In this document: positions 39,436 through 55,818 of the stretch, piece by piece
Layout: every line of letters begins with the position of its first letter
Numbering within the stretch: position 1 is the first letter of the stretch
The notes under the pieces: generated by a model
Told to the model about the DNA's origin: nothing
What the model saw: the letters and a program-made list of their open reading frames with translations, nothing else
The model's database searches: none
Position numbers and translations under genes: made by a program
Source: an uncultured Dehalococcoidaceae bacterium
GTDB lineage: Bacteria; Chloroflexota; Dehalococcoidia; Dehalococcoidales; RBG-16-60-22
DNA: 64,000 bases
Assembly (NCBI GenBank): GCA_964493435.1
Contig: CAZBMB010000001.1
Span: forward strand, 223,486 to 287,485
Direction: 5' to 3'

Positions 39436-40206
39436 CTACTCTTCTTCTTCCTCTTCCTCCACATCAGCAGCGGCGGCGCCTGGTTCCTCGGTGATGCGTG
39501 GTAATAAAGCGGTCACCCTTTTCCGCGGTCGCGTCGGGAAGTCCGACTTATTGATTACTTGACGCAGTTCCTTGAGCTTTGCTGCCTGTTGGGCTGCTTT
39601 CACCGTAATGACCACACCGTCCATCCCTGCCTGCCACAGGGCCTTGAGTTCATCGCCGCCAACCGACATTGGCACGGTGGTAAGCAACGGTTTGGATAGA
39701 AGGTTGGCAAGTCGCTGACACAGCATGAGCCGGTGCCAGGTAATAACCGGCGCTTCCTCTTCGTCATCGGCCAGCAGTACCGCGTCTGCCGGCAGCTCGT
39801 TTATCGCTCTTAGCAGACCTTCACTTAAAGATGATTCAATGAGCAGGATTTTACCCATCTTCTCAATGCCCGCAAGGTCGAACGCTGAATTCAGAGGCAG
39901 GATAGCAAAATCGGCGCCAGCCTGGATATAACTTTTTAACTGCGGGACGTTTTCCCCTTCCAGCCACAGTCCCCAGACCGTGTTGGGTGGGGAGGGAAAA
40001 ACATCCTTTCCGGTGCTGGTTGGCGCTATGATGACCGCATCGGCGGCGGAAGCATAATCTGCCAGTTGCGCAGTGTTTTCTGGCGCCTCAATTCTGGCAA
40101 TAAGCGCCATCTTGGGCTTTGACGGTACTGTCCTGCTAGCTTTGAATCCCATCGGCAGGGAAATCGTTTCCGTGGTCTGGATAAGTCTATCGATAAGCTT
40201 GCTCAT
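39436..40206 (-). CDS. hypothetical protein with poly-Glu C-terminus
   Basis: 256 aa. An alternating beta/alpha-like pattern (ADAVIIAP, GADFAILP, ADAVLLADD, GMDGVVITV) ends in DVEEEEEEE. I recognise no family. Confidence 0.5.
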   Translation of the reverse strand: MSKLIDRLIQTTETISLPMGFKASRTVPSKPKMALIARIEAPENTAQLADYASAADAVIIAPTSTGKDVFPSPPNTVWGLWLEGENVPQLKSYIQAGADFAILPLNSAFDLAGIEKMGKILLIESSLSEGLLRAINELPADAVLLADDEEEAPVITWHRLMLCQRLANLLSKPLLTTVPMSVGGDELKALWQAGMDGVVITVKAAQQAAKLKELRQVINKSDFPTRPRKRVTALLPRITEEPGAAAADVEEEEEEE

Positions 40207-40410: not shown

Positions 40411-40608
40411 ATGATTAAAACGGTGATAAGGATGAGGAATGACCTGGTTATGGTCTTTGATAGCCGGGGAGAACAGATGACTGCCTATCAGGGTCCATAT
40501 GACAAGGTTCGGGGGAAGATTATCAATGATGCTCCTCTGGATGCCGTGTTTATTGAATGGTTTGGCAGTGACGCTATTCCAGAAACCGTAAGCAGAGAGG
40601 CATGGTAG
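40411..40608 (+). CDS. hypothetical small protein
   Basis: 65 aa; strong AAAGGAGG 8 nt upstream; no recognisable motif. Confidence 0.5.
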   Translation: MIKTVIRMRNDLVMVFDSRGEQMTAYQGPYDKVRGKIINDAPLDAVFIEWFGSDAIPETVSREAW

Positions 40609-40611
40609 TCA

Positions 40612-40830
40612 GTGAGAAACTACGAGCGGATAAAAACCATGCTCACTACGGGAGAGGTCGCTTTCTTGCTTGATGTCCATCCCGGCACCATAAGGCGCTG
40701 GAGTGATGGTAAATTGCTGAGAGGTTATCGGATTGGGCCGCGGGCGGACCGCAGGTATTTCTGGGAGGACATAGCGATTTTTCTCAGGAAAAGGCCGGAG
40801 CTGATAGGCTCAAAAGGTGGTTCTAAATGA
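40612..40830 (+). CDS. excisionase/MerR-superfamily helix-turn-helix DNA-binding protein
   Basis: 72 aa. LTTGEVAFLLDVHPGTIRRWSDGKLL..YRIG fits the HTH_17 pattern. An alternative start is ATG 40639. Confidence 0.6.
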   Translation: MRNYERIKTMLTTGEVAFLLDVHPGTIRRWSDGKLLRGYRIGPRADRRYFWEDIAIFLRKRPELIGSKGGSK

Positions 40831-41197: not shown

Positions 41198-41369
41198 TCA
41201 TCCGGAGCAATCTGGCCATATCGGCCGTCCCTATTCGCCTCACATTATACCCCACTTTTTTAAACCGCGGCATGCGGCGCATGGCGCCGATTTTCAAGCA
41301 AATTATCCGTCAAATGGCAAATTACGTCGATGAATTTGTATATTTGTGCATATAATTGTGGTATGACTA

Positions 41370-41399
41370 TTGACATTTTTAGTATTATTAATTTACAAT
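41370..41399 (+). promoter_or_regulatory. Putative promoter TTGACA-18-TACAAT of the CheR/kinase operon
   Basis: Read directly, in an AT-rich tract 41330-41420, about 25 nt upstream of the cheR-like start. Confidence 0.5.
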
Positions 41400-41421
41400 T
41401 GGCATACATGTAAATAGGATT

Positions 41422-42285
41422 GTGTTACTTGAGATGGAGAGTAAGGTTACCGAGCACCAAAAGGCTGCTCTAGATGTTCTTCTGGAGAAAGTATATCAGG
41501 ATAGCGGCCATGATTTCCGTGACTACAGACGTGGCACCGTGGCACGTCGCCTTGAGAGGAGAATGCTGGCCACAGGTGTGACAAGCTACGTTGACTATAT
41601 GTACTTTTTAGACTCGCACCCTGAGGAATACAACCGATTTGTCAGCTACCTGACTATAAAGGTCAGCCGTTTCTTTCGAAGTCGATATACTTTTCAGCAG
41701 ATGTCGGCCATGATATTGCCAGAACTATTGTCAAATAAAATAAAACAGAGAGATTTCGGTTTGAAGTTCTGGAGCGCCGGCTGTGCCCACGGCGAGGAAC
41801 CGTATTCAATAGCGATAATGATGGCGGATTTTCTTGGGGAAAACCGTGCCGACTTTAATATCAACATTTATGCCTCTGATATAGACTATCTCGATATGAA
41901 AAGATTGCGGCCCGGGGTTTTCGCCGCGGCAGAGGTTGAAGACCTGCCACGTTCCATTCTGGACAGGTATTTTCTTTCTTATGGGGAAGAATATGAAGTA
42001 ATACCGGATATCAGGCATATGGTCCATTTTTTCCATCTTGACCTTGCCGCAGCAGATGGGCAGGCGCTACCCTCGATGGACTGCATATTCTGCTGCAACG
42101 TTTTGATTTATTTTCAAAGGCAACTTCAGGAGAGGGTGCTCAACAGGCTTTATCATTCGCTGGTGGTACCCGGCTATCTGGTTCTCGGTGAAGTGGAAAC
42201 CCCGACCACTGCCTTGCTTCAGAAAATGGAATGCCTTGATAGCAAGGCGAAGATATATAAGAAGGTTAGTGCTGGCGGCAGCTGA
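41422..42285 (+). CDS. cheR: CheR-type protein-glutamate O-methyltransferase
   Basis: 287 aa with a GTG start; the alternative is ATG 41434. It has the N-terminal helical domain (DFRDYRRGTVARRLERRM) and the SAM-binding motifs FWSAGCAHGEEPYSIAI, ASDID and IFCCNVLIYF. Confidence 0.85.
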   Translation: MLLEMESKVTEHQKAALDVLLEKVYQDSGHDFRDYRRGTVARRLERRMLATGVTSYVDYMYFLDSHPEEYNRFVSYLTIKVSRFFRSRYTFQQMSAMILPELLSNKIKQRDFGLKFWSAGCAHGEEPYSIAIMMADFLGENRADFNINIYASDIDYLDMKRLRPGVFAAAEVEDLPRSILDRYFLSYGEEYEVIPDIRHMVHFFHLDLAAADGQALPSMDCIFCCNVLIYFQRQLQERVLNRLYHSLVVPGYLVLGEVETPTTALLQKMECLDSKAKIYKKVSAGGS

Positions 42286-42306
42286 TATATATAGGAGATA
42301 GTGAAG

Positions 42307-43761
42307 ATGGCGGGCAATTCGTTATTAACCAGTGATGAAATATCGCGGAAAGCGGCGGCCATAAGGTCGCTGTCACTGCTCTGGACAGCGACCTGTTGCG
42401 TCGGCCAGATTATCATCATCTTGGTCTGGCTGTTCAATCCTTTTTTCATTGTGCTGCCACTGTCCCTGATGGCCATTACCTCCATAGCTATCGGGGCGGT
42501 GACCTACTGGCTGTACCGGTCGGGCAGGGTTGAGCTGTCCGGTTATTTCTTTACCATTGCTGTGGTGCTGTTCAGCTCGGTGATAACACCGCTGTTTGGC
42601 GGTTTCACCGGCCCGCTGCCCGTAATCTATATTTTCGCCATCCTCGTCGCTGGCGTAATGATTAATATCCGGGCCGGTTTCTACATTGCGGCGCTATCCG
42701 GCGTTCTTTATCTGGCCACCATTGGCATCGAGAATACGGGTCTGCTTTCCAGCCTGATAAAGCCGGAAGCGGAAGCGATTGCCATACCCTATATTACGGT
42801 GATAATCTTTGTGCTGTTCTTCTTCACGGCTGCGTTCATGAGCTGGTTTGCTGCCAGTGGGCTGCAACGGGCCCTGCGGGATGTCCGCAGCTATGCTGCG
42901 GAGCTGCAAACGGCCAATGAAAAGCTTCAGGCCAGCGAGGAGGAGCTTAGGGCGGCTAACGAGGAACTGAGGGCAATTGAGGAAGAATTGCGGGCCAGTA
43001 ATGAAGAGCTTACGACGGCCAACGAGGAGTTGCAGGAAACGCAGGACCAGCTGGTCCGCACCGAGCGGCTGGCCGCGATTGGCCAGCTGGCGGGGGGTGT
43101 GGGTCACGAATTGAGAAATCCGCTTGGTGCCATCAAGAATGCCGTTTACTATATCAAGGGCAGGTTGGCTAAAAGTGAGCTGGTGGCAAAAGAGCCGCGG
43201 GTCATGGAATTCCTTGACATTGTGGAAGATGAGGTAGGTGCCTCCAATAAAATCATCAACGACCTTCTCGGTTTTTCCCGTGTCAGCAAGCCAATGGTGG
43301 CGCCCACACCGGTGAGAGGACTGATAGCTGAGGCCTTATCCAAAGTACCTATTCCGGAGAATGTTCAGCTGAGCCAGGATATTGACTCCGATTCAACCGA
43401 GGTTGCCGTTGATGCGGAACAGATACAGCAGGTGCTGGCGAATGTTATCGCCAATGCGGTGCAGGCAATGCCAGAAGGAGGCAGATTGACCATAAGCGCC
43501 AGGGTAAAGAAAGGATTTCTGGAGCTGGAAGTAACCGACACCGGAAGTGGTATTGCGGATGAAAACAAGGACAAAATTTTTGAACCCCTGTTTACCACCA
43601 AGGCCAAAGGCATCGGGCTGGGGCTGGCCGTCAGTAAATCAATAATTGACCGCCACGGCGGGCAAATTGAAGCCAGAAGCGCAGTTGACAGGGGTACCAC
43701 ATTCACCATCAGGTTGCCCCTGGCGGCAATGGTTCAGGAGGGCATCGTTGGGAAAAAATAA
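42307..43761 (+). CDS. membrane sensor histidine kinase (about 6 TM, heptad coil, HisKA, HATPase)
   Basis: ATG 42307 lies 8 nt after AGGAG(A); the ORF track starts at GTG 42301. It has hydrophobic segments, the coil ELQTANEKLQASEEELRAANEELRAIEEELRASNEELTTANEELQETQDQL, H-box GVGHELRNPL, and N/G boxes (NVIANAVQAM, DTGSGI, GIGLGL). Confidence 0.88.
   Translation: MAGNSLLTSDEISRKAAAIRSLSLLWTATCCVGQIIIILVWLFNPFFIVLPLSLMAITSIAIGAVTYWLYRSGRVELSGYFFTIAVVLFSSVITPLFGGFTGPLPVIYIFAILVAGVMINIRAGFYIAALSGVLYLATIGIENTGLLSSLIKPEAEAIAIPYITVIIFVLFFFTAAFMSWFAASGLQRALRDVRSYAAELQTANEKLQASEEELRAANEELRAIEEELRASNEELTTANEELQETQDQLVRTERLAAIGQLAGGVGHELRNPLGAIKNAVYYIKGRLAKSELVAKEPRVMEFLDIVEDEVGASNKIINDLLGFSRVSKPMVAPTPVRGLIAEALSKVPIPENVQLSQDIDSDSTEVAVDAEQIQQVLANVIANAVQAMPEGGRLTISARVKKGFLELEVTDTGSGIADENKDKIFEPLFTTKAKGIGLGLAVSKSIIDRHGGQIEARSAVDRGTTFTIRLPLAAMVQEGIVGKK
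42901..43047 (+). repeat. Seven consecutive 21-nt (heptad-encoding) units within the kinase gene
   Basis: The translation gives seven heptads: ELQTANE, KLQASEE, ELRAANE, ELRAIEE, ELRASNE, ELTTANE, ELQETQD. The DNA units are degenerate but share a GAG/GAA-CTn framework. Confidence 0.8.
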
Positions 43762-44491
43762 CGGACAGACCAATATTCTGGTGGTTGATGATTTGCGCAA
43801 CATGCGTCTGACACTGGGCGGCATACTTGAGGATGAAGGGTACAGTGTCACGATGGTGGAAGATGGCTACCAGGCTATAGAAGCGGTCAGGAATCGGCGC
43901 TTTGATGCCATTTTCATTGATATCAAGATGCCGGGGATAGACGGGGTGCAGACTTTCCGGGAGATTAAAAAGATAGACCCTGATGTGGCTGCGGTGATGA
44001 TGACCGCCTACTCGGTTGAGGAACTGGTCAAGGAAGCCCTGGAGGAAGGCGCCCACGCTATTATCTATAAACCATTCGATATCAGCATGGTTATCGGCAT
44101 CATCGAAGAGTTGCTGACCACCAAAACGCTGGTGCTGGTGGTCGATGACCATCATGCTGACCGGGAGACATTGAAAGCAATTCTGGAGGAAAAAGAATAC
44201 CGGGTGGCCACGGCTGCTGACGGTTCTGAAGCAATTGACATGGTCAGGAGCCGCCATTATGACGTAATTTTCCTGGACGTAAGACTGCCGGATATGACCG
44301 GGTTTGAGACTTTTGAGCAGGTGAAAAAGATTGACCCGCAGGCCGCGGTGATAATGATGACCGGCTACGCTGAGGAAGACCTGATGAAAAGCGCCGTTGG
44401 GGCGGGTGCCTTCACGTATCTGTACAAGCCATTTGATATGGAAAAAGTAATCGCTATGATTGAGGCTCTATCCCGGGAGAAAAAGAAATGA
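43748..44491 (+). CDS. tandem-receiver response regulator (REC-REC, no output domain)
   Basis: Two receiver domains are present: ILVVDD...[11 protein letters not shown]...MMTAY and VLVVDD...[11 protein letters not shown]...MMTGY. The ORF track start (TTG 43646) lies deep inside the kinase gene. TTG 43748 is preferred because AGGAGG sits at 43736-43741. The start remains uncertain. Confidence 0.8.
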
Positions 44492-46545
44492 ACCCTTTCT
44501 CACCCGCCATACTGGTTGTAGAGGACGATGCGGGGGCGAGGACAACGCTCTGTGGCATACTTGAGGAAGTCGGTTACGGAGTCGTCGGCCTGGAAAGAGG
44601 GGCTGATGCGCTGAAGGTAATGAAAAAGGGCCATTTTGACGTCGTAATCGTGGACATAAAGCTGCCCGACGTCAGCGGGCTGACGATACTGGAGATGGCC
44701 AAGGAAATTAATCCCGAGGTAGCGGTAATCATTACTACCGGATATGCCAGCGTGGAGACAGCTGTGGAGGCGGTCAATCAGGGGGCTTACGCGTATTTTG
44801 TCAAACCGGTCAATCCGGATGAAATTAAAAATGCCATTGCCAATGCGCTCAGACAGCAGCGGCTTTCTCTGGAGAATAAAAAACTGGTGGAAGGATTGCA
44901 GCGCTCCAGTAAACTGCTCTTTGAAACCAATGACAAGCTGCAGAATGACATCGCCGAGCGCAAGCGAATTGAGGATGCGCTGCGACTGTCCGCGAATCAG
45001 TTGCGAACCACGTTTGATGCCATCGGTGACGCGGTCTGCCTGCTGGATGATGACGCTAACATCGTGCGCTGTAACAAAGCGATGACCGACCTCATAGATA
45101 AATCATACAGCGATATCAATGGCCGAAACTGCTGCGAACTTTTACATGGCCTGAAGGGACCCGTAAAAGGGTGCCCTTTTGTTCGTATGAAAAAGACTGG
45201 TTGTCGGGCAACTCAGGAGATGTTTCTGGATGGGAAGTGGCTTGAAATCGCCGTTGACCCTCTCACTGACGATGATGGCAATATCATTGGTGCGGTGCAC
45301 GTTATCGCTGATATCACCGAGCGCTGGCGGTGGGAAGAGGCTCTGCGGCAGTCGGAAGAATTCAGCTCAGCACTACTGAGAAATGCGCCCTATCCGCTGC
45401 TGGTGCTCAATGCGGATACTTCAATCAAATACGTGAATCCAGCACTGGAAGAGCTATCTGGATTTAGCATGGCTCAGGTCTTTGGTATGAAAGCGCCGTA
45501 CCCATGGTGGACGAAAGAGACCTGGGACAGAACCAAGCGGGATTTTTATTCGGCACTGAGTGGAGGTGCCGTAGGCAAGGAAGAGCTGTTCCAGAAGAAA
45601 AACGGGGAGCGATTCTGGGTTAACATAAACTCTGCGCCAGTGGTCATAGACAGCGAACATAAATATTATTTGGCCAACTGGGTTGATATCACCGAGCGGA
45701 AGCGAATGGAGCAGGAGTTAAAGGAAAAAAGCAAACTGCTGGAGGTAAAGAACAAGAAACTTGAGACGCAGAGTCAGGAGCTGATGAAGCAGGAGCAGGA
45801 GCTTGTGGAGAAGACCAGGGAACTGGAGGTGGCCAATAAAGCTAAATCTGAATTTCTGGCTCATATGTCGCATGAACTGCGCACTCCGCTTAACGTAGTT
45901 ATCGGTTTCTCCGAGTTGATGCTGGATGGCGCCGTAGGCGAACTGGGCGAGGAACATATAAAATGCCTGAAAGATATTCTGGGCAGCGGGCAGCACCTGC
46001 TGAGTCTTATCAACGATATTCTGGATCTGTCCAAGATAGAGGCCGGCAAGATGGAACTGAAAATGAGAAATATCGCGCTACAGAACATTCTGGATACATT
46101 GAGAAATGAGTTGATGCCCATCATCCACCGGCGGAAGCAAAACCTTGAAGTGGTCATTGAGAATAGGCTGCCACCAGTACGGGCCGACCGGAATAAAATA
46201 CGGCAGGTGCTGCTCAATCTGCTGAGCAATTCCACCAAATTCACTCCAGACGGTGGTCATCTGCGTGTGGAGGTATTCAGGGAAAATGGCTGGTGCCGGG
46301 TCAGCGTTATAGATGATGGTGTTGGTATAAAAAAGAAGGACCAGAAAACCATTTTTGAACCTTTCAGCCAGATTGACGGTCCGGTGCTCAGGGAAGCAGG
46401 TGGTACGGGTCTCGGACTGGCCATTACCAAGCAAATCATTGAGAAGCACGGTGGCAAAATATGGGTGGACAGTGAATATGGCAAAGGGAGCCGGTTCCAC
46501 TTCACCTTGCCCCTGGCCAGAAAGGGCGTTATTCATCCAGCATAG
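44488..46545 (+). CDS. hybrid sensor histidine kinase (N-terminal REC, coiled coil, two PAS, HisKA, HATPase)
   Basis: 685 aa; ILVVEDD...[13 protein letters not shown] receiver, two PAS-like segments, H-box [10 protein letters not shown], and G-boxes DDGVGI and GTGLGLAI. The start overlaps the upstream stop (ATGA). Confidence 0.88.
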
Positions 46546-46578
46546 GGGAAAAACTGGCGAATTGATAGGAGGTATAAA

Positions 46579-46968
46579 GTGCTACAGGACAAAGTAATGA
46601 TAGTTGAAGATAACCCGCAGAATATGAAGTTAATTGAGATGCTTTTAAGAGCGAAGAACTACGTTCTGCTCAAGGCGTGTGACGGAGAGGAGGCGCTGGA
46701 TACGGCGACCCGGGAACAGCCTGATCTGATTATCATGGATATGCAGCTTCCCAAAATGAGTGGGGTTGAGGTAACCAAGCGGCTCAGACAGATGCCTGTT
46801 TTCAGCCATACACCAATAATTGCGCTCACTGCCTATGCCATGAGAGGGGACAAGGAGCGATTTCTGGAAGCCGGCTGCAATGCCTATATCTCAAAGCCGA
46901 TTAATACCCGTGAACTGCCTGAAATTATCGCCCGGATGTTGCAGGAATATAAGAAAATTGATGCTTAG
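46579..46968 (+). CDS. single-domain response regulator (CheY/DivK-like)
   Basis: 129 aa; GTG start 6 nt after AGGAGG; VMIVEDNPQNMKL, IIMDMQLPKMSG, ALTAYAM, KP. Confidence 0.88.
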   Translation: MLQDKVMIVEDNPQNMKLIEMLLRAKNYVLLKACDGEEALDTATREQPDLIIMDMQLPKMSGVEVTKRLRQMPVFSHTPIIALTAYAMRGDKERFLEAGCNAYISKPINTRELPEIIARMLQEYKKIDA

Positions 46969-46980
46969 AATGGTGCGAAG

Positions 46981-47688
46981 ATGGCTAAAAAGATATTGAT
47001 TGTTGATGATGATCCGGCAATGGTAAGATTGCTGGCACAGGTCCTGACTGGGAAAGGATATGAAGTGCTTGAGTCCAATAATGGCCAGGATGCGCTGCGC
47101 CTGCTGTACAAAGACAAACCAGACCTGGTGTTGCTTGATGTGGTCATGCCCACCATGGATGGCTGGCAGACCTGCAGTCGTATTCGTGACGTGGCGGCCG
47201 CGATACCGATTATCATGCTTAGCGGTCGGCGTAAAACGGAGGAAGATGTGGTCCGTGGTCTGGACCACGGCGCTGATGATTATCTTATTAAGCCGATAGG
47301 CAATAAGGAACTGATGGCCAGGGTACAGGCAATGCTGCGGCGGGCTGAGCTTCCCTCATCTATGGCAGGGGAGGGCAAATATGCTAGCTTTGGTGATGGC
47401 TATCTTACCGTAGATATAACGCAGCACAAGGTAACCGTCAGTGGCAAGCGGGTAAAATTAACGCCTATCGAGTTTCGGTTGCTGGCGCTGCTGCTGCAGA
47501 ACAGTGGTCGCATCATGACGCACCAGCAATTGCTGGAAAAGGTATGGGGCTGGGAATATGTTGACGACCTGGACTATGTACGTATTTATATCTCGCATCT
47601 TCGGCGTAAGATAGAACCGGATGCTACCTTGCCCAAATATATCATCACCGAACCGGGTGTTGGTTACTATTTTCAAAAGCCAGCCTGA
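46981..47688 (+). CDS. OmpR/PhoB-family DNA-binding response regulator
   Basis: 235 aa; receiver (ILIVDDD, LLDVVMPTMDG) plus a winged-helix C-terminus (LTPIEFRLLALLLQNSGRIMTHQQLLEKVWG...YISHLRRKIE). Confidence 0.9.
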   Translation: MAKKILIVDDDPAMVRLLAQVLTGKGYEVLESNNGQDALRLLYKDKPDLVLLDVVMPTMDGWQTCSRIRDVAAAIPIIMLSGRRKTEEDVVRGLDHGADDYLIKPIGNKELMARVQAMLRRAELPSSMAGEGKYASFGDGYLTVDITQHKVTVSGKRVKLTPIEFRLLALLLQNSGRIMTHQQLLEKVWGWEYVDDLDYVRIYISHLRRKIEPDATLPKYIITEPGVGYYFQKPA

Positions 47689-47726
47689 AGGTCAATCTTT
47701 TCACCAAACTCTGAGGTGTTAGCCCC

Positions 47727-48449
47727 ATGTCTGGTGCTTTACCGAATAACGAGGTAATTGGTATAATCCTAGACGATATGTCGGTGAGTATGGAGTCCTT
47801 ACAATCCAGCACCTATTTCTCTGGATTGAGTTCAGAGGAACTTGATTCGGTAAGGAAGCTTATTTTTCAGAAAACGGTGGCGCGTGGTGAAATTATCCTC
47901 TTTGAAGGCGAACCGGCTCAGGCCGTGTATTTTGTCGTCGCCGGTGTAGTGAAGGTGTTTAAAACCTCCCCTGACGGCAAAGAGCAAATCTTATATCTTG
48001 CCCGACCTGGTGATTCATTCAATGATGTGCCCGTGTTTGACGGGGGGCTGAACTTGGCCAGTGCCGAAGCATTGACACAGGTAGTGCTTTATGAGATAAA
48101 AAAGAGTGACTTTGAAACAAGTCTGCGGGAATACCCGGCATTAGCAGCCAATGTCATTAAGATGCTGTCACAGCGAATTGAGCAGGTGATTTCACTGGTT
48201 GAGGACCTGTCGTTTCGGCGGGTAACGGGCAGGGTGGCCAAGATACTGCTGGAGAATGTTGAGGACATTCACGGGCAGAAGCACAGATTGACCCAGCAGG
48301 AAATGGCCGCCATGGCCGGCACGGCAAGGGAAATGATTGGTCGGTCGCTCAAGCTGCTGGAGGAGGAGGGAAAGGTGAGGCTGGAACGCAATAGAATCGT
48401 TATCACGGATAAAGAGGCGCTGAGGGAGGTGGCCGGTGTTGGTATGTGA
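47727..48449 (+). CDS. Crp/Fnr-family transcriptional regulator
   Basis: 240 aa; cNMP-binding-like beta-roll (GEIILFEGEPAQAVYFVVAGVVKV) and a C-terminal HTH (LTQQEMAAMAGTAREMIGRSLKLLEEEG). There are no N-terminal FNR-type cysteines. Internal alternative starts exist. Confidence 0.85.
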   Translation: MSGALPNNEVIGIILDDMSVSMESLQSSTYFSGLSSEELDSVRKLIFQKTVARGEIILFEGEPAQAVYFVVAGVVKVFKTSPDGKEQILYLARPGDSFNDVPVFDGGLNLASAEALTQVVLYEIKKSDFETSLREYPALAANVIKMLSQRIEQVISLVEDLSFRRVTGRVAKILLENVEDIHGQKHRLTQQEMAAMAGTAREMIGRSLKLLEEEGKVRLERNRIVITDKEALREVAGVGM

Positions 48450-48468
48450 GACAAAAGTCGCTGACAGG
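48444..48468 (+). promoter_or_regulatory. Motif copy 1: ATGTGAGACAAAAGTCGCTGACAGG (GAC-N4-GTC core), candidate Crp/Fnr-type site
   Basis: Near-identical to 48823-48847. It overlaps the crp/fnr stop codon. Its core centre is 30.5 nt upstream of a TAAACT -10-like hexamer (48485-48490). Confidence 0.5.
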
Positions 48469-48516
48469 GGGGTGAATGCAATCTTAAACTATATCCGTAT
48501 GGAGAGCATGGGATAA

Positions 48517-48732
48517 ATGGCCAAAATGCCTATTATCGACCGAGATAAGTGTGATGGTTGTGGGCTTTGTGTGGAGGTGTGCCATTGCAAGGTTATAGTG
48601 CGCGTTGATAACGCGGTCGAGATAAATAAGACGAGGGAGTGTCAGCTGTGCACCAAATGGTGTACGATGTGTGAAATGGTCTGTCCCACCGGGGCAATAC
48701 AGTGTCCCTTTGAGGTAGTTACGGAAGAGTAA
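48517..48732 (+). CDS. small 4Fe-4S ferredoxin-like protein
   Basis: 71 aa; CDGCGLCVEVC plus CQLCTKWCTMCEMVCP cysteine clusters. Confidence 0.8.
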   Translation: MAKMPIIDRDKCDGCGLCVEVCHCKVIVRVDNAVEINKTRECQLCTKWCTMCEMVCPTGAIQCPFEVVTEE

Positions 48733-48822
48733 CCCCGCCTCAAGCTCACTACCCCGACCATCACATTTCTCCGATTATTTTTTCAAATTTCACCAACTTT
48801 TTATATGTTTTTTCGTTATTTT

Positions 48823-48847
48823 ATGTGGGACAAAAGTCACATACAGG
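48823..48847 (+). promoter_or_regulatory. Motif copy 2: ATGTGGGACAAAAGTCACATACAGG (GAC-N4-GTC core), candidate Crp/Fnr-type site
   Basis: Near-identical to 48444-48468. Its core centre is 29.5 nt upstream of a TAAGAT -10-like hexamer (48863-48868). Confidence 0.5.
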
Positions 48848-48895
48848 AGTGATTCACCGGTCTAAGATGAACAATATATCAAGGAGAGGGGGTGC

Positions 48896-49135
48896 GTGAT
48901 GAGGAACAGAAGCAATATGAAAGAAAAGAAGTCGGCGGTAAAAACGGCCTGCCGGCATTACTGGGTTATTGAGGCTGCTAGTGGCCCTACTAGCCGGGGT
49001 GTCTGCAGGTTTTGCGGTGAGAAAAAGGAGTTCCTAAATTCGTGGTCGGACGCCAGCTATAAAGGGAAGGACGCCAGAGTTTTTGACCTGCCCGATATGC
49101 TGGAAGATGAGGCAGAGGCTGAAGACGGTTCCTAG
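48896..49135 (+). CDS. hypothetical zinc-ribbon protein with acidic tail
   Basis: 79 aa; CRHYW...GVCRFCG (C-x-H...C-x2-C). AAGGAGAGGGGG lies upstream. The start is GTG 48896 or ATG 48899. Confidence 0.55.
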   Translation: MMRNRSNMKEKKSAVKTACRHYWVIEAASGPTSRGVCRFCGEKKEFLNSWSDASYKGKDARVFDLPDMLEDEAEAEDGS

Positions 49136-49172
49136 AAGAGCCATAAGATAGAGGCAAGAAGCCGTCATATTC

Positions 49173-49200
49173 GGAGGGGCGAAAAGCCCCTCCGTTCGTT
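49173..49200 (+). terminator. Probable intrinsic terminator at the end of the signalling operon
   Basis: GGAGGGGC-GAAAA-GCCCCTCC followed by the T-rich GTTCGTTT. Confidence 0.55.
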
Positions 49201-54336: not shown

Positions 54337-55818
54337 ATGGCGCTGATGAAGCCGGAGCAGTTTGAAGAGAGCCTGAAAAAGCTCAAGCCGCGCGTCTTCA
54401 TGAACGGAAAAAGGGTGCCTGACATCTTGGCGAACCGGAACACTCGCACCGTGGTGGAGGCGAACAAGGCCAGCTATGCCTGGGCGCTTGACCCGAAATA
54501 TAAAGATATCATGACCTGCCATTCGCCACTGATTGGTGAGACGGTTAATCGCTATACCCACGTGAGCGCCAGCGTTGAGGACCTGGTTAAGAAAGCCGAG
54601 GCGGGCACCTTCACCGCCGAGATGCTGGGGACGTGCATCTACCGCTGCGTTGGCTATGACGCTTTTCATGCCCTGGCCAGCACTACCTGGGAGATGGACC
54701 GCGACCTTGGCACTGAGTATAAACCGCGATTTCTGGAATACCTGAAGATGGTGCAGAAAAAAGACTTATCTGTGGCCGGCGCCCTCACCGAACCGAGAGG
54801 TGTCCGGAACAAGAAAACGCTGGAGTGGCCTGACCCGTACCTGTCATTGAAGATGGTGGATAAGAATAAGGACGGCATGGTGGTGCGGGGGGCCAAAATC
54901 AATATCAGCGGCGCCTACGCCAGCCATGAGCTGATGGTGCTGCCCCAGGGTGCCCACGGCGAGGGTGAGGAAGACTACGCCATCGCTTTTGCCACCCCCA
55001 CCGATGCCAAAGGCATCGCTTACGTTTGCCAGTACACGCCTTATTCGGCGGAGAGGGAGCAGGCCGACGACCTCGAGGAGCTGGGCAACCCGGTCTATGG
55101 CCAGCGTGAGACCTCAATGGTCGTCTTTGATAATGTATTTATCCCTTGGGAGCGCGTTTTCCACTGCGGCGAATACCAGTATTCCGGCAGGATGGTAGCC
55201 CGCTTTGCCCGGACGCACCGCATGACCTGTGGCGGGACGTGCAAAGTGGGCTTCATGAACCAGATAATCGGCGCCTCAAGGCTGATTCAGGAATACAAGG
55301 GGCTGGAGAAGGCGGCACATATAAACGAGCAGCTGGCCGAGATGGTAACGCTGCGGGAGACGGGCCGGGCCTGTGGCCTGGAGGCGGCTCGTCGCGGCAC
55401 GGAGGAACCTCCCGGCTCGGGCGTTTTTCTGCCCGACGAGCTCATGGGCAACGTGGCCAAGCTGAATGTCTGCAACGCTTTCTGGCGGGTGATGGCACTG
55501 GCCGGTGACATCGGCGGTGGGCTCATCGTCACCATGCCTTCGCTGAAGGAACTTAAAAATCCTGAGGTCAAGGACTACGTTGCGGAGTTTTATTCCTTCG
55601 GCTCGTCCGAGCCGACCGAGAACATCATGAAGGTTACAAAACTTTTACAGAACTGGACGGCGGGGCTGCACGGGGTGGGCACCTGGCACGGCGCCGGGCC
55701 GGTGCAGACGCAGAAAATCATGCTGCAGCGGGTCATCAACTACGACCGCGAGAAGGACTTGGTCAGGCGACATTTGAAGCTGAAGGGCAGCGGTAAGAAA
55801 CCTGAATTTGACGGTTAG
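54337..55818 (+). CDS. 4-hydroxybutyryl-CoA dehydratase / 4-hydroxyphenylacetate 3-hydroxylase (AbfD/HpaB) family protein
   Basis: 493 aa with family-typical length and N-terminus. Cys100-x3-Cys104 (CIYRC) and His294/Cys298/Cys302 (HRMTCGGTC) sit near the positions I recall for the AbfD 4Fe-4S ligands. Confidence 0.65.
   Translation: MALMKPEQFEESLKKLKPRVFMNGKRVPDILANRNTRTVVEANKASYAWALDPKYKDIMTCHSPLIGETVNRYTHVSASVEDLVKKAEAGTFTAEMLGTCIYRCVGYDAFHALASTTWEMDRDLGTEYKPRFLEYLKMVQKKDLSVAGALTEPRGVRNKKTLEWPDPYLSLKMVDKNKDGMVVRGAKINISGAYASHELMVLPQGAHGEGEEDYAIAFATPTDAKGIAYVCQYTPYSAEREQADDLEELGNPVYGQRETSMVVFDNVFIPWERVFHCGEYQYSGRMVARFARTHRMTCGGTCKVGFMNQIIGASRLIQEYKGLEKAAHINEQLAEMVTLRETGRACGLEAARRGTEEPPGSGVFLPDELMGNVAKLNVCNAFWRVMALAGDIGGGLIVTMPSLKELKNPEVKDYVAEFYSFGSSEPTENIMKVTKLLQNWTAGLHGVGTWHGAGPVQTQKIMLQRVINYDREKDLVRRHLKLKGSGKKPEFDG

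Follow-up and report, generated by a model that had tools for sequence, protein, structure and literature searches.

What does a chemotaxis-type methyltransferase do in a gene cluster that has no chemotaxis genes around it? The question is raised by a 64-kb stretch of contig CAZBMB010000001.1 from an uncultured Dehalococcoidaceae bacterium (the window), in which a CheR gene stands at the head of nine plus-strand open reading frames (ORFs) and is followed by histidine kinases, receiver (REC) proteins and regulators. Methylation-based adaptation is regarded as the feature that sets chemosensory pathways apart from two-component systems. The Dehalococcoidales are generally non-motile, hard to culture, and important in subsurface and organohalide cycling; the source bacterium is itself probably non-motile. 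The best reading of the locus is a two-component module that uses a chemotaxis-type methyltransferase without chemotaxis machinery nearby. The main clue, absent from the original prediction made from the letters of this DNA, is a coil of repeated Glu-Glu pairs next to the phospho-accepting His of the kinase adjacent to CheR. On comparative sequence evidence, it is highly probable that this CheR is functionally coupled to that kinase rather than to chemotaxis, and we favor with moderate confidence the full claim that CheR methylates the coil.

CheR (41434..42285, plus strand) belongs to the S-adenosylmethionine (SAM)-dependent protein-glutamate O-methyltransferases and has 283 amino acids. Gene starts in this work were fixed by independent gene calls on the identical public contig, and the ATG start of CheR agrees with its homologues. 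Both of its Pfam domains, CheR_N (PF03705, 56 bits, E = 3e-15) and CheR (PF01739, 155 bits, E = 1.5e-45), exceed the 27-bit cut-offs, and residues 17-256 match the Salmonella CheR structures 1AF7/1BC5 with an E-value of 5e-29. The motifs FFR, GEEPYSIAI, ASDID and NV(M/L)IYF are identical or conservatively replaced relative to Salmonella CheR, and the basic N-terminal helix is kept, with DYRRGTVARRLERRM aligning to DHKRDMVYNRLVRRLR of the Salmonella protein. Presumably, these motifs and the basic helix serve SAM binding, catalysis and substrate recognition. In an alignment of 17 CheR homologues, the SAM-binding and catalytic motifs are invariant. Judged by these residues, the enzyme looks catalytically competent. 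Its score against the enteric CheR equivalog model (NCBIfam NF007902) is 130 bits, and the cut-off of that model is 435 bits.

The next gene encodes kinase 1 (42307..43761, plus strand; 484 amino acids), which by Pfam and AlphaFold2 consists of a membrane sensor of six predicted helices, a coil, HisKA and HATPase_c. The N-terminus is hydrophobic, and the closest NCBIfam models are AtoS and ZraS. Ahead of HisKA the protein reads LQTANEKLQ-ASEEELR-AANEELR-AIEEELR-ASNEELT-TANEELQ-ETQDQL. The five central heptads (42931..43035, plus strand) follow the form x-x-N-E-E-L-x, with Asn, Glu-Glu and Leu at fixed positions, and their Glu-Glu pairs are the proposed methyl-accepting sites of what is here called the NEEL coil. 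Within the window the repeat is unique to kinase 1. The phospho-accepting His (GVGHELRNPL, 43105..43107, plus strand) was placed by its H-box position, by the column profile described below and by the structural model. That AlphaFold2 model, built on 50 homologues with a mean predicted local distance difference test score (pLDDT) of 76, has six N-terminal helices and one unbroken helix at residues 153-288 that passes from the last membrane segment through the coil into the DHp helix bearing the His. Over residues 201-240 the pLDDT is at least 90, and the last Glu-Glu pair lies 26-27 residues upstream of the His on the same helix.

The coil is strongly conserved among related kinases. Each of the 120 kinase 1 homologues listed carries at least three perfect heptads. 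When 118 homologues were aligned on the H-box, the five Glu-Glu pairs were 88-100% Glu, the central pairs reaching 100%, and the core Asn and Leu were essentially invariant, while the remaining exposed heptad positions varied freely (Q/R, Q/E, R/K). With Asn and Leu assigned to the core of the heptad register, the Glu-Glu pairs would face outward. In its Glu-Glu pairs and their heptad spacing the coil resembles the arrangement of chemoreceptor methylation sites, whose sequence consensus it fits only in part. The Pfam copy searched has no family for it; hits of the coil to PF28422, PF28427 and PF15619, which are the eukaryotic coiled-coil families CCDC89, SKAP and Lebercilin, were taken as spurious.

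As had been predicted, chemotaxis genes are missing from the window: neither ORF scans nor tblastn with chemoreceptor hairpin and CheB domains revealed a chemoreceptor (methyl-accepting chemotaxis protein), CheA, CheW or CheB. When the nine products and nearly all other real-looking ORFs of at least 180 amino acids in the window were scanned with Pfam, no CheW, Hpt or CheA domains appeared either. Nearly all the other ORFs of that kind are housekeeping genes, including those for ribosomal proteins, SecY, adenylate kinase, RpoA and EF-G as well as for a 2-oxoacid dehydrogenase, FtsH, aminoacyl-tRNA synthetases and a major facilitator superfamily transporter. The hairpin query also found nothing in the relatives' loci L002-L016 (L-numbers label the loci fetched from relatives), and it matched in 30 other CheR loci.

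A CheR-profile scan with one genome per species yielded 80 loci from many phyla (1.28 Mb in total), which were searched with a strict coil pattern, (x3-[EQ][EQ]-L-x) repeated at least three times. The coil occurs in 31 of the 80 loci, and all 32 matches are on the same strand as CheR and follow it, with none elsewhere. In 23 of these 31 loci the coil is part of a CheR protein linked to CheB, mostly within the CheR reading frame itself, in ORFs of 630-1790 amino acids. The other eight, six from Dehalococcoidia, one from Scalindua and one from Bacteroidales, have a stand-alone CheR with no CheB within reach and carry the coil in a nearby kinase. Crude recognition of kinases in the 80 loci gave 50, 18 with the coil and 32 without; each of the 18 either neighbors CheR, is fused to it, or is the second kinase in its cluster. 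Around CheR, the coil and chemoreceptor genes are nearly mutually exclusive: two loci have both, 29 only the coil, 28 only a chemoreceptor and 21 neither (Fisher p = 3e-6).

The Scalindua locus (L015, 8896-14784) shows the stand-alone CheR between a REC-containing gene, HD-GYP-like by eye, and a 1144-amino-acid coil-bearing hybrid kinase that by eye reads sensor-HAMP-GAF-coil-kinase-REC-REC; the next kinase there is without the coil.

The fused form was met again when 1.84 billion representatives were searched with CheR and the best 150 relatives were analyzed. Among these, 74 are multi-domain proteins of at least 450 amino acids, 45 of them with the coil, which is found in none of the 76 short ones. 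The fused architecture according to Pfam is CheB_methylest-CheR_N-CheR-PAS-[coil]-PAS-HisKA-HATPase_c. Such proteins are named 'two-component system, chemotaxis family, CheB/CheR fusion protein' by JGI and 'CheR family methyltransferase', 'chemotaxis protein CheB' or 'PAS domain S-box protein' by NCBI, and we take the family to be KEGG K13924. A search with one fusion protein brought up at least 4759 relatives, many of which come from other Chloroflexota, where the fused form is common in Herpetosiphonaceae, Ktedonobacterales and Thermomicrobiales. Two proteins have the coil and no kinase: a complete CheB-CheR-PAS-coil protein in L021 (3622-6192) and a CheR-PAS-coil-PAS protein in L037 (8088-11866) that is preceded by two separate CheB genes. 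Because such kinase-less proteins exist, the coil is not merely a linker to the kinase. The L021 protein adjoins a transporter gene and a P-type ATPase gene.

The module is best read as a split, CheB-less version of this CheB/CheR-histidine kinase fusion family. The CheR domains of the fusions, which make up about half of the nearest relatives, are 36-43% identical to the CheR of the module, and both forms have the N-E-E-L coil, the link to HisKA/HATPase_c kinases and PAS sensors, and no association with chemoreceptor genes. They differ in that the fusions place the coil between PAS domains, whereas in the module CheR is a separate 283-amino-acid protein, the coil sits in the neighboring kinase and abuts the DHp directly, the two genes are 15-21 nucleotides apart, and no CheB domain or gene is near. 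The original prediction had stated that no characterized system has this composition. This stands for characterized systems; what it overlooked is the large annotated family of CheB/CheR fusions. In a literature search that left subscription journals largely aside, no experimental study of either the split or the fused form was found, nor anything on the coil, on the function of the CheB/CheR fusion kinases or on CheR in Dehalococcoidia.

Within the Dehalococcoidia, relatives with CheR 52-83% identical retain the neighborhood. The adjacency of CheR and a kinase, which the original prediction had made a point on which it would stand or fall, is kept in every Dehalococcoidia relative seen, and the first kinase after CheR carries the coil in every one examined. 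This remains so although the sensor part of the kinase is swapped among six membrane helices, PAS, HAMP and GAF. The linkage also appears when the kinase rather than CheR is the starting point. Three kinases picked by kinase similarity all have CheR upstream. A metagenome scan was also made with DHp motifs as the seed, independently of the coil; of the 36 loci from it that extend 2.6 kb or more upstream of the kinase, 33 have CheR there on the same strand. The near one-to-one adjacency in the kinase-selected loci leaves a chemoreceptor-style arrangement, with one CheR serving many coil-bearing kinases, unsupported; beyond the first kinase, the coil is found only in the second one of that cluster.

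The extent of the cluster varies with distance. Conservation of the nine-gene order holds for the closest relatives L002, L009 and L010 and fails in more distant ones, where six- or four-gene cores are found. A six-gene core of CheR, kinase 1, REC-REC, kinase 2, REC and OmpR-type regulator recurs in L005, with one extra kinase, and in L013, and its start is seen in L012 and L014 before the contigs end. A minimal form of CheR, one kinase, REC and OmpR-type regulator is present in L007 and L011. The single REC is conserved in all relatives with enough sequence, and the OmpR-type regulator in all with enough downstream sequence. The conserved unit is therefore CheR, a coil-bearing kinase, further kinase and receiver genes, a single REC and an OmpR-type regulator. 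As transcriptional outputs, the prediction had named both the OmpR-type and the Crp/Fnr regulators, of which the former is borne out by conservation and the latter is limited to the closest relatives. The two proposed effectors, ferredoxin and Cys protein, are likewise confined to L002, L009 and L010. Since Crp/Fnr, ferredoxin and Cys protein are absent in L005, L007, L011, L013, L089, L092 and L094, a role as core effectors was rejected on distribution, and the three are lineage-specific additions rather than demonstrated effectors.

A 54-58% relative has a STAS-like insertion in the cluster. In one lineage (L089, 5546-5926, and also L090 and L091), a STAS/SpoIIAA-like gene (DUF7793) stands between CheR and the HAMP-coil kinase.

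Turning to characterized systems, one close likeness is to chemoreceptor adaptation in the Tar/Tsr receptors of E. coli and Salmonella and in FrzCD with FrzF of Myxococcus. These share with the module a CheR-fold enzyme with SAM motifs and a basic recognition helix, and candidate Glu pairs at seven-residue spacing on a long signaling helix that controls a histidine kinase. The sites of FrzCD, E168, E175 and E182, lie in consecutive heptads and include a non-consensus HE pair (PMC2535941). Unlike these pathways, the module has no chemoreceptor, CheA, CheW or CheB in cis; its presumed target is a kinase helix expected to form a parallel coiled coil with a core of Asn and Leu, in place of an antiparallel four-helix bundle with chemoreceptor core residues; and its output is transcription instead of motility. 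A second group, the Wsp, Che3 and CheR-TPR clusters (PMC3447774), resembles the module in combining CheR with multi-domain receivers, REC-kinases and transcriptional outputs. Those clusters keep a chemoreceptor, CheA and CheW, of which the module has none within reach.

Because the kinase has a Glu-Glu heptad coil that in other phyla is fused to CheR, methylation is expected to act on this pathway. In the mechanism proposed, CheR would use SAM to methylate the Glu-Glu pairs of the five consecutive N-E-E-L heptads, which sit on the helix predicted to run unbroken from the sixth membrane helix to the His of kinase 1. With Asn and Leu in its core, the coil is likely to be only marginally stable. 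Neutralizing up to ten negative charges per chain could then alter coil packing and so reset the kinase/phosphatase balance for a given input from the membrane sensor, a role like that of methylation in chemoreceptors. Downstream, the AtoS/ZraS-like kinase 1 would phosphorylate the translationally coupled REC-REC protein and possibly also the N-terminal receiver of kinase 2, and the TorS/BarA-like kinase 2 would phosphorylate the single receiver and the OmpR-type regulator, leading to a change in transcription. This wiring is inferred from family similarity and gene coupling, as are, from the comparisons above, the coil as methyl acceptor and the direction of the effect. In the Dehalococcoidia, with no CheB within 10 kb in their loci, the methyl mark may be long-lived or may report SAM supply. 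As to the broader proposition, that ordinary sensor histidine kinases can be methyl-accepting and that a dedicated CheR could give them gain control or memory without chemoreceptors, CheA or CheW, these sequence comparisons leave the balance even.

The alternative that survives best keeps CheR tied to the module and makes one of the receiver proteins (REC-REC, single REC or OmpR-type) its substrate, with the coil serving only as a signaling or dimerization helix or as a docking site. It has a precedent in Salmonella, where CheR methylates the OmpR-family response regulator PhoP at acidic residue pairs and thereby changes signaling (PMC8546571). The case counts for the preferred reading as well, in showing that a CheR can act on a two-component protein. 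There the enzyme is a chemotaxis CheR with a side activity on a receiver; the CheR of the module is dedicated, probably co-transcribed to judge by gene order, and likely to act on the kinase. The module contains five intact receiver domains, in all of which acidic pocket, acceptor Asp, Thr/Ser and Lys can be read from the sequence, and in some lineages CheR is kept with a decayed coil. Yet receivers explain neither why the coil follows CheR into fusions without a receiver, and even without a kinase, nor why the Glu-Glu pairs are near-invariant, and acidic pairs common to all receivers would provide no specificity. A receiver substrate is for these reasons considered unlikely.

Less probable still, at under one chance in ten, is that CheR belongs to an ordinary chemosensory pathway with its chemoreceptor, CheA and CheW encoded in another part of the genome, the kinase adjacency being incidental. 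Chemoreceptors are what CheR normally acts on, and the search covered 64 kb of a contig of about 374 kb, so that distant che genes are possible. Against this stand the persistence of CheR-kinase adjacency across relatives whose CheR is as little as 52% identical, and in Scalindua as well; the presence of CheR upstream of nearly all the kinases selected without regard to it; the many fusion proteins among the nearest CheR relatives; and a score far under the enteric equivalog cut-off. Moreover, no chemoreceptor or CheB lies within 10 kb in any such locus, compared with a chemoreceptor gene close by in 28 of the 49 CheR loci that lack the coil. Slightly less probable again is that the protein is a catalytically dead partner or scaffold of the kinase or methylates a non-protein substrate: with CheB missing, a stable role that involves no cycling would be plausible, but the intact SAM-binding and catalytic motifs speak for an active enzyme and the CheB methylesterase domain of most fused relatives implies a methyl-ester cycle.

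For coil methylation by CheR, the reading preferred here, several observations have to be set on the other side of the scale. The evidence for it is all comparative. The classical chemoreceptor methylation site is E-E-x-x-A-S/T, which the coil matches only in part: one of its five sites, EELRAS, fits exactly, and EELRAA, EELRAI, EELTTA and EELQET fit partly. Among the chemoreceptor genes of the fetched loci, none fits the coil pattern. A few coil-bearing kinases (L129, L135) have no CheR upstream, and some lineages keep CheR though the coil has decayed to 1-3 Glu-Glu pairs. Neither CheB nor CheD turned up within 10 kb in the Dehalococcoidia loci or in L015 and L016, and with no esterase or deamidase near the Dehalococcoidia clusters, coil methylation as proposed does not account for reversal of the mark. 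The search for che genes spans the 64-kb window and the 10-kb flanks of relatives. Lastly, a first neighbor-joining tree placed all coil-linked CheRs in one clade, but bootstrapping supported their union in only 5 of 100 replicates, with 100 for the Dehalococcoidia and 68 for the fusions, and monophyly was dropped as evidence.

Shortened or decayed coils were seen in the kinase 1-type kinases of L149, L156, L159, L165 and L168 (e.g. SEELQASHKELEAANDKL), with CheR upstream in the first four and not in L168.

If coil methylation is true, the boundary between chemosensory and two-component systems would be blurred, with adaptation or set-point control built into a kinase that controls transcription. 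It would also offer a working hypothesis for several thousand unstudied CheB/CheR fusion proteins and explain a conserved regulatory module in Dehalococcoidales. The module makes a testable case, with an enzyme of 283 amino acids, a predicted target of about 40 residues, and fused relatives that supply their own esterase.

The remaining proteins of the cluster are those of a two-component system. All nine same-strand ORFs that had been predicted exist, and Pfam upheld the domains named for eight of the products. The cluster has two kinases with HisKA and HATPase_c, their H-boxes at 43105 and 45871, and five receiver domains, all above the Pfam cut-offs. The REC-REC protein (43748..44491, plus strand; two Response_reg domains, E = 1e-61) starts with TTG and has no output domain. 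Its receivers are most similar to AtoC, NtrC and ZraR, and each of the two has the acidic pocket, acceptor Asp, Thr and Lys. Kinase 2 (44488..46545, plus strand; 685 amino acids) reads REC-PAS-PAS-coil-HisKA-HATPase_c by Pfam, and its closest NCBIfam models are TorS, ArcB and BarA. Its coil (approximately 45700..45837, plus strand) is degenerate and Lys-rich and fails the NEEL pattern in the window and in L002, L009 and L010; its counterpart fits the pattern in L005, L013, L089, L092 and L094. In the nine-gene clade the coil of kinase 2 looks as if its acceptor sites had either disappeared or become permanently neutral. The single-domain receiver (46579..46968, plus strand; 129 amino acids, Response_reg E = 1.3e-30) is most similar to the receivers of the hybrid kinases BarA and HrmK, and it is followed by the OmpR-type response regulator (46981..47688, plus strand; Response_reg and Trans_reg_C). 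The accessory genes encode a Crp/Fnr-family regulator (47727..48449, plus strand; cNMP_binding and HTH_Crp_2), a small ferredoxin with 4Fe-4S motifs (48526..48732, plus strand; Fer4, E = 4e-09) and a Cys protein of 78-79 amino acids (48899..49135, plus strand) with no Pfam or NCBIfam match. The ninth product had been called a zinc ribbon; no family supports that name, which for this 79-residue protein comes solely from the Cys/His pattern. None of the nine products has an Hpt domain by Pfam, and for that reason a strict His-Asp-His-Asp relay is not shown: of the methylation-modulated multi-step phosphorelay that had been proposed, the methylation-linked two-component module is retained and the multi-step part is not.

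The genes are packed much as the original prediction described. CheR and kinase 1 are separated by 15-21 nucleotides, the 3' end of kinase 1 overlaps the TTG start of REC-REC at 43748 by 14 nucleotides, and REC-REC and kinase 2 share a 4-nucleotide ATGA overlap at 44488. Gaps of 33 nucleotides from kinase 2 to the single REC, 12 from there to the OmpR-type gene and 38 to Crp/Fnr follow, so that the first six genes overlap or are at most 33 nucleotides apart. The gaps then widen to 67-76 nucleotides before the ferredoxin and 163 before the Cys protein. The predicted promoter and terminator are also the strongest candidates in their surroundings. TTGACA-18-TACAAT (41370..41399, plus strand) is the top sigma-70-type match in the region, with 11 of 12 positions, and both hexamers are conserved in L002, L009 and L010, whose CheR is 70-73% identical. 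The strongest terminator-like site is a hairpin of nine pairs, eight of them G-C, followed by a T-tract (49172..49194, plus strand).

The -10 hexamer is overlapped by a conserved motif, CAATTGGCA (41396..41404, no strand assigned), in which ATTGGCATA is invariant across five aligned upstream regions. A second, imperfect copy lies about 80 nucleotides upstream at 41311-41319 and is the perfect palindrome GCCAATTGGC in L002 and L009. From its position and conservation, the CAATTGGCA motif may be a putative operator for autoregulation. A sigma-54 promoter at a conserved TTGGCA motif was ruled out, the -12 TTGC element being absent. The cluster is indeed more AT-rich than its surroundings, with a G+C of 0.502 against 0.556 in the remaining window. 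Because an offset of the same kind is found in relatives L002 and L010, the low G+C appears to be old rather than a sign of recent transfer. Recent horizontal transfer was rejected as its source, since relatives share both the offset and the flanking genes, namely an IMPDH-family gene upstream and dxr, rseP and ispG downstream.

Two small genes 5' of CheR (40411..40830, plus strand) encode a 65-amino-acid protein with no family match and a 72-amino-acid HTH_17/MerR-like protein (HTH_17, E = 2.8e-06), and both may be part of the module. Homologues of the two precede CheR in L002, L005, L007 and L010-L014, and a 65-amino-acid gene is also called at this place in L092 and L094, where the wider context differs. 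Farther upstream, a minus-strand ORF of 256 amino acids (window positions 39436-40206) has no Pfam match and ends in a C-terminal run of Glu; it keeps its place, with the IMPDH-family gene on one side and the cluster on the other, in L002, L005, L007, L010 and L014. Downstream of the cluster, an HpaB-family protein (HpaB_N and HpaB; window positions 54337-55818) is encoded between the prolyl- and phenylalanyl-tRNA synthetase genes, and the HpaB family also includes 4-hydroxybutyryl-CoA dehydratases.

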